A DNA stretch of 64,000 nt from Escherichia coli (GTDB lineage Bacteria > Pseudomonadota > Gammaproteobacteria > Enterobacterales > Enterobacteriaceae), in the NCBI RefSeq assembly GCF_016026235.1, contig NZ_CP065613.1; one strand, written 5' to 3'. Positions 50,205 through 50,225 of this stretch are shown here, one piece after another (within the stretch, counting starts at the first letter, position 1; the number at the start of each line of letters is the position of its first letter). A program made the position numbers and the translations under genes. The notes below the pieces were generated by a model that saw nothing but the letters and a program-made list of their open reading frames with translations, was not told the origin of the DNA and ran no database searches.

Positions 50205-50225
50205 AGCCTGCTTTTTATACTAAGT
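50205..50225. other. attL of lambda-like prophage (core gctttttatactaa at 50210-50223, bacterial B arm left, phage P' arm right)
   Basis: cctgctttttatactaagttggcattataaaaaagcattgc matches the lambda att core and P' arm as recalled (one T fewer in the T-run). Confidence 0.85.

Follow-up and report, generated by a model that had tools for sequence, protein, structure and literature searches.

The window, a stretch of 64,000 nucleotides of Escherichia coli DNA, consists largely of prophage sequence, and only positions 41465-50227 are collinear with the K-12 segment from pgl to ybhC (98.2%). A second prophage fills positions 1-41464. It abuts pgl and replaces the gene order that K-12 has upstream of pgl (gal, mod). 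It carries a Rha regulator and tail genes in addition to the genes given below and ends in ipaH, the gene of an IpaH-family T3SS E3 ligase (NCBIfam IpaH_Shig, 563 bits with a cut-off of 550). Because of ipaH, the host was classed as a Shigella/EIEC-type E. coli, and the names on proteins identical to those of the window point to Shigella boydii. The attB-lambda locus follows directly after ybhC.

1246-3204, RecE-like exonuclease VIII of the second prophage
16625-18136, PBSX-type terminase of the second prophage
18136-19602, portal protein of the second prophage
38760-40586, minus strand, ipaH
48880-50163, minus strand, ybhC, chromosomal gene on the gal side of attB-lambda (427-aa ORF; annotated as ybhC in relatives)

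The closest relatives are FDAARGOS_943, which is labelled E. coli, and several NCTC assemblies. In these genomes, ipaH is found about 0.5 kb from attR at the right end of the attB-lambda prophage (L089 9586-11349; L090-L094), so that this prophage is the ipaH carrier in that group.

Beyond ybhC, the sequence passes from a bacterial arm through a core into a P' arm, and positions 50200-50229 read gttgaagcct GCTTTTTATACTAA gttggc. This order of B arm, core and P' arm beside ybhC marks the junction as attL (B-O-P') of a prophage at attB-lambda. It had been described in this way in the first-pass annotation, whose interval of 50205-50225 brackets the core correctly.

50165-50209, plus strand, B arm of attL, bacterial flank (45 nt, identical to the left flank of K-12 attB except at 50199)
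50210-50223, plus strand, common core with one T deleted, GCTTTTTATACTAA (canonical GCTTTTTTATACTAA), 14 bp against 15 bp
50224-50296, plus strand, P' arm (73 nt, identical to lambda except for C>T at 50276)
about 50249-50261, presumably the IHF site H' (TATCAATTTGTTG), placed by the known layout of lambda attP
about 50270-50279, 50280-50289 and 50291-50300, presumably the arm-type Int sites P'1, P'2 and P'3, respectively, placed in the same way

The 21-bp core of lambda is composed of B (CTGCTTT), the overlap O (TTTATAC) and C' (TAAGTTG). The top-strand cleavage site falls in the middle of its run of six T, three of which belong to B and three to the overlap. Arm-type Int sites follow the consensus C/AAGTCACTAT and IHF sites the consensus WATCAANNNNTTR. 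In the window, the T-run covers positions 50212-50216 and counts five T. Six T (GCTTTTTTATACTAA) were found by alignment in lambda attP (J02459 27724-27738), in K-12 attB and in the attL of E2865, and six T were also read in almost all other attL junctions. The alignment with lambda attP and K-12 attB, which had been proposed as a check, confirmed the count of five T against six in lambda: the difference is not a miscount, and the junction is an att site. The distance between ybhC and int is 133 nt here and 134 nt in all ten other loci coding for the identical Int (10/10).

All other parts of a lambda-type attL were found, namely the B arm, the P' arm with H' and three arm-type sites, and int and xis reading away. 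The 15-bp core GCTTTTTTATACTAA, which holds the 7-bp overlap TTTATAC, is one T short. The site is thus a mutated member of the lambda-type attL class and not a different type of site. No second copy of the core was found within the window, where the closest sequence is a chance match with two mismatches at 59502-59516; with a single core copy in the window, attR must lie outside it.

Two further point differences accompany the missing T. In the B arm, position 50199 is T in the window and C elsewhere; this SNP is common only to three loci (L023, L034 and L039) and hence private to the lineage. The C>T change at 50276 falls in P'1, which reads AGGTCATTAT here and AGGTCACTAT in lambda. It is common to the entire family of AntA-type Shigella prophages, those with six T (L024-L031) among them. 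In the excisive attL complex, P'1 takes part in one of two Int bridges (PMC4880445), so that this change may itself weaken excision.

The left part of the prophage extends from int to the right end of the window.

50297-51367, minus strand, int, lambda-type tyrosine integrase (353/356 identical to lambda Int; Pfam Arm-DNA-bind_1 and Phage_integrase)
51345-51563, minus strand, xis, excisionase (71/72 identical to lambda Xis; Pfam Exc)
51648-54606, minus strand, accessory early-left genes: AntA/P22AR antirepressor-like, ORF6N, DUF551 and Ead/Ea22 (Pfam)
54880-56644, minus strand, exo (YqaJ), bet (RecT) and gam, Red-type recombination module (Pfam)
57102-58170, minus strand, Nmad5 protein and N-type antiterminator (Pfam)
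60077-61558, unstranded, immunity region as a whole (Pfam)
60077-60814, minus strand, S24/HTH repressor without meaningful similarity to lambda cI (Pfam)
60875-61120, plus strand, cro-like gene (Pfam)
61259-61558, plus strand, cII (Pfam)
61721-62068, plus strand, 5' part of an O-like replication-initiator gene (HTH_36), cut to 115 aa (Pfam)
62031-63486, minus strand, IS110-family (ISEc20/ISSfl4-like) insertion sequence of 1456 bp (Pfam DEDD_Tnp_IS110 and Transposase_20; names on identical proteins)
62063-63259, minus strand, IS110-family transposase (Pfam)

A DUF3024 gene is listed between the N-type antiterminator and the repressor. The integrase (356 aa, 99%) differs from lambda Int by the three substitutions H164P, A245T and I248V, while the region of Tyr342 is unchanged; int and xis are therefore nearly identical to those of lambda, as had been noted earlier. 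The lambdoid gene order int-xis, exo-bet-gam, N, repressor/cro/cII and replication genes is present according to Pfam and to DNA matches with Stx and lambdoid phages. Membership of the lambda immunity group calls for a repressor homologous to lambda cI. The repressor of the window is 30% identical to lambda cI over 67 aa of the HTH only. Being unrelated to cI, it makes the prophage heteroimmune, in agreement with the first reading of the immunity region. The best matches of the phage DNA, including its early region, are Stx-converting phages, which reach about 96% and cover less than half of the 13.8 kb. Taken together, the element is a mosaic lambdoid prophage with lambda's own att/int/xis module, and its description as a mosaic relative of lambda was apt.

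Some neighbouring observations concern related loci. Just past the position of the window's right end, one locus (L019 12312-15218) codes for a 968-aa Toprim primase-like protein with a weak LAGLIDADG_3 match, which may mean an intein or a homing-endonuclease insertion. The nin region of the same locus (L019 16195-16778) holds a HigB/HigA-type toxin-antitoxin pair. In two other loci, L022 (GCA_012772275.1) and L029 (GCA_031665305.1), antA-xis-int is followed about 0.9 kb further on by an lpdA-like pyridine-nucleotide-disulfide oxidoreductase gene and not by ybhC. No lambda core was found in these two loci, so that their junction may have been rearranged or a secondary site may have been used for integration.

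The prophage is no longer intact. Its O-like gene is split by the insertion sequence, whereas the intact gene codes for 258-265 aa in the sister prophages L060-L063, and its core is deleted by one T. The late genes lie beyond the window. The insertion sequence is absent from the sister loci L060-L062, whose sequence resumes at 63487, and is present in the lineage of the window (UGFA01, JTCO01 and NJNB01). Another insertion was seen in a sister prophage, that of CP065611.1, where the terminase gene contains an IS4-family element. The prophage of the window is hence a replication-defective, decaying remnant.

The five T were compared between related assemblies. A stretch of 12,280 nt of the window recurs without any difference in NCBI contig UGFA01000002.1 (GCA_900449985.1). 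Five T together with the SNP at 50199 also occur in JARKNJ010000001.1 (100% identical over 8.6 kb) and in JAALAC010000002.1 (1 mismatch and 1 gap over 7.2 kb). Three assemblies of separate accession series thus agree, so that a one-off homopolymer error is unlikely; the missing T is real and has been inherited. UGFA01 and JARKNJ01 are identical over the compared region and might represent one strain sequenced twice.

Six T were found in the nearest relatives outside this lineage. FDAARGOS_943 differs from window positions 48393-51825 by 2 mismatches and the T gap. In CP065611.1 and JARKNK01, the prophage is the same, with 99.66% identity over window positions 48670-56271. The sister prophages L060-L062 match window positions 52626-62030 with 99.9%; they sit at the same site and retain six T. 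Only the five T and the SNP at 50199 are private to the lineage of the window. Since the sister prophages at this site have retained six T, the T was lost in place once the prophage had integrated, and the five-T core is derived and not ancestral. The exact same Int protein lies beside a six-T attL in ten of ten loci, which argues against a new att specificity. A new specificity should show a variant core in both partners and in attP along with changes in Int; here Int is the protein of the six-T loci, 33 sequenced phages gave no five-T attP, and five-T alleles were never found paired. The term "variant core" used in the first-pass annotation consequently holds in so far as the core differs by one T. 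It does not denote a distinct core type or specificity, but a lineage-specific deletion that followed integration.

Six T were read in attR in all four assemblies that lie nearest to the lineage of the window, and in strain PE164, six T in attR stand opposite five T in attL. Judging from the relatives, the attR of the window prophage presumably has six T as well; by extrapolation it would lie some 55 kb from attL, at about 1.14-1.15 Mb of UGFA01000002.1.

The expected consequence of such a mismatch follows from the mechanism of lambda recombination, in which the first exchange always takes place at B and C. The attL site is committed via the Int bridges P'1-C' and P'2-B (PMC4880445). [quoted passage not shown] Heterobivalent integrases in general need partners that share the same 7-bp overlap, but now and then they accept heteroduplexes (10.1101/2023.11.06.565760).

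With a probability of roughly 0.8, the junction is best read as the attL of a mosaic lambdoid prophage at the canonical attB which lost one T after integration, with excision reduced as a consequence and neutral decay as the setting. A lambda-type Int would have inserted the phage between ybhC and ybhB, at the canonical attB, in an ipaH-positive lineage. Afterwards, one T:A pair was lost from the run of six T in the core, most simply by replication slippage. With one T fewer, B and C' and the Int subunits on them would come to lie one base pair closer to each other, and attL would be left with a 6-bp overlap facing the presumed 7-bp overlap of attR. As Int-dependent excision needs an identical 7-bp overlap in both partners, excision by Int and Xis is expected to be strongly reduced, and the prophage would be "grounded". 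Excision is thus probably impaired, and the deletion probably helps to lock the remnant in place. As the missing base belongs to a homopolymer, T would still meet A in the first strand exchange, and some residual excision is possible. The replication gene is already destroyed and other insertion sequences occur in sister prophages; the deletion is therefore most simply understood as neutral slippage, which would be one step of a neutral decay.

To place the allele in the species, 5426 complete E. coli genomes were surveyed. A lambda-type attL at ybhC was present in 1918 of them (35%) and an uninterrupted attB in 3491; few sites in the species are used by prophages as heavily as the gal-bio site. 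Five-T cores were counted as follows.

five-T attL, 11/1918 (5426 complete E. coli genomes)
five-T empty attB, 3/3491 (5426 complete E. coli genomes)
five-T attR, 2/~1800 (5426 complete E. coli genomes; query limited to the conserved part)
five-T attP, 0/33 (sequenced phages)
five-T core of any kind, 4 found, all of them attL junctions (IMG/VR)

Five-T alleles therefore turn up sporadically at attB, attL and attR in about 0.1-0.6% of complete E. coli genomes and are never paired. The 11 genomes with a five-T attL represent about six host/prophage backgrounds, namely PE164 with E105, four UTME strains, 22AR0750, J6, Z1323PEC0008, and N10 with 23CRST038. Several of these backgrounds are backed by independent assemblies.

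Two observations concern sites related to this survey. In Raoultella, Trabulsiella, Cedecea neteri, Enterobacter sp. Ag1, Tenebrionibacter and Intestinirhabdus, the native homologue of attB-lambda is CTGCTTTTTATACTAAGTTGAGCGAAACGGGAAG (L046, L048, L050-L052, L054, L056-L059), with five T and with G where the B' arm of E. coli has C; the length of the T-run at the attB-lambda locus thus varies between genera. In phage ev099 (LR597635.1/NC_049953.1), 70 query bases align to 72 subject bases at about 26930-27001. This is one base beyond the six-T difference, and there may be another small indel near attP.

Five T was commoner at attL than at attB or attR, and the comparison of attL with attB gave p = 0.0012 in Fisher's test (uncorrected, on genome counts). 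Together with the published concept of prophage "grounding" by att-site mutation (PMC6379469), this could mean that the T-run of lambda is a recurrent natural target of grounding, in which one-T deletions arise or are kept preferentially at attL. They would then result from selection for non-excisable prophages or from slippage in abortive cleavage and religation by Int at an attL complex devoid of Xis. As a general pattern this seems quite improbable, and for the deletion in the window, either selection for grounding or a lesion promoted by Int cleaving within the T-run of attL is still a little less probable. Once clones are collapsed, about six events at attL stand against 2 and 3 at the other two site types; the excess is not convincing and suggestive at most. 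In IMG/VR, attL simply outnumbers attR among the matches listed (86 against 31 six-T cores). Selection for grounding should moreover hit attR equally, and the window prophage is already replication-defective. An attR query with the full lambda P arm had given 0/1773. This count was biased by P-arm divergence, as divergent P arms are invisible to that query, and the restricted query found two five-T attR sites.

A rival reading is a homopolymer error in sequencing or assembly, in a strain with a true six-T core. The window belongs to a long-read NCTC-type assembly (UGFA01). In J6 and Z1323PEC0008, which are counted with a five-T attL, the neighbouring ybhJ shows frameshifts or internal stops as is typical of indel-prone assemblies, and calls of five T also appear at about 0.1% at attB and attR. 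For the window, such an error is nevertheless quite improbable: UGFA01, JARKNJ01 and JAALAC01 concur on both the five T and the private SNP linked to them, and the related complete-genome pairs PE164/E105 and N10/23CRST038, which come from separate laboratories, both have five T.

The five T could also have been inherited at integration, if the phage had entered a five-T attB or had brought a five-T attP. Empty five-T attB sites do occur in E. coli (3/3491), and attB-like sites with five T are native to several other enterobacterial genera. Still, six-T sister lineages with the same prophage (99.7-99.9%) at the same site imply a shared ancestor with six T, none of the 33 sequenced phages had a five-T attP, and Int is expected to use a site with 6-bp spacing poorly. 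We judge this origin to be just as improbable as a sequencing error.

That the 14-bp core with its 6-bp overlap functions as an alternative core for lambda-like recombination is scarcely credible, for although the conserved five-T chromosomal sites of Raoultella, Trabulsiella, Cedecea and others demonstrate that such a target exists naturally, the very same Int protein adjoins six-T cores, the 33 phages yielded no five-T attP, the attR of the relatives, like that of PE164 with its five-T attL, has six T, and the five-T alleles are scattered singletons that were never found paired.

Elements and lesions of these kinds are already known, and loss of a T after integration is a case of ordinary prophage decay. 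It labels the prophage of this Shigella-type genome as a remnant that is defective in replication and probably unable to excise. In a wider sense, genome data do contain variants of the lambda-type att core. Programs that find prophage boundaries by exact direct repeats, as well as predictions of inducibility, should allow for one-base lesions in the core. If the weak excess at attL were true, it would bear on the way in which prophages become fixed; otherwise, the finding adds little beyond annotation.

Compared with a canonical lambda attL at the gal-bio attB, the site agrees in its position by ybhC, in its B arm, in its P' arm with H' and P'1-P'3 and in the orientation of int-xis. It differs in its core (14 bp with five T against 15 bp with six T) and in the SNPs at 50276 (P'1) and 50199 (B arm). 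The combination of a lambda attP/int module with a non-lambda immunity is shared with the heteroimmune phages 434, HK97, HK106, HK629/630 and mEp332 and with the lambda imm21 and imm434 hybrids. All of these have a six-T core, while the early region of the window is nearest to Stx-converting phages instead.

The lesion itself has its likeness in laboratory att mutants. The excision-defective lambda mutants att6 and att24, which we take to be the same loss of one T from the run of six, were reportedly isolated as mutants of Shulman and Gottesman and are said to have been sequenced by Landy and Ross in 1977; a literature search for the minus-one-T core mutants att6/att24 found no account of them. 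Like these and the saf overlap mutants, the window has a cis lesion in the common core of a kind harmful to Int recombination with a wild-type partner. The mutants were selected in the laboratory, whereas the deletion in the window is natural and fixed in a lineage.

The closest natural counterparts are the degraded ("grounded" or cryptic) attB-lambda prophages of EHEC/EPEC-type E. coli. They likewise have a lambda-type int-xis at ybhC, insertion sequences and deletions, and the five-T attL recurs among them in PE164, E105 and the UTME strains, with six T in the attR of PE164. They differ from the prophage of the window in their immunity and early regions and in their cargo, which consists of the T3SS effectors Cif, NleH and EspJ.
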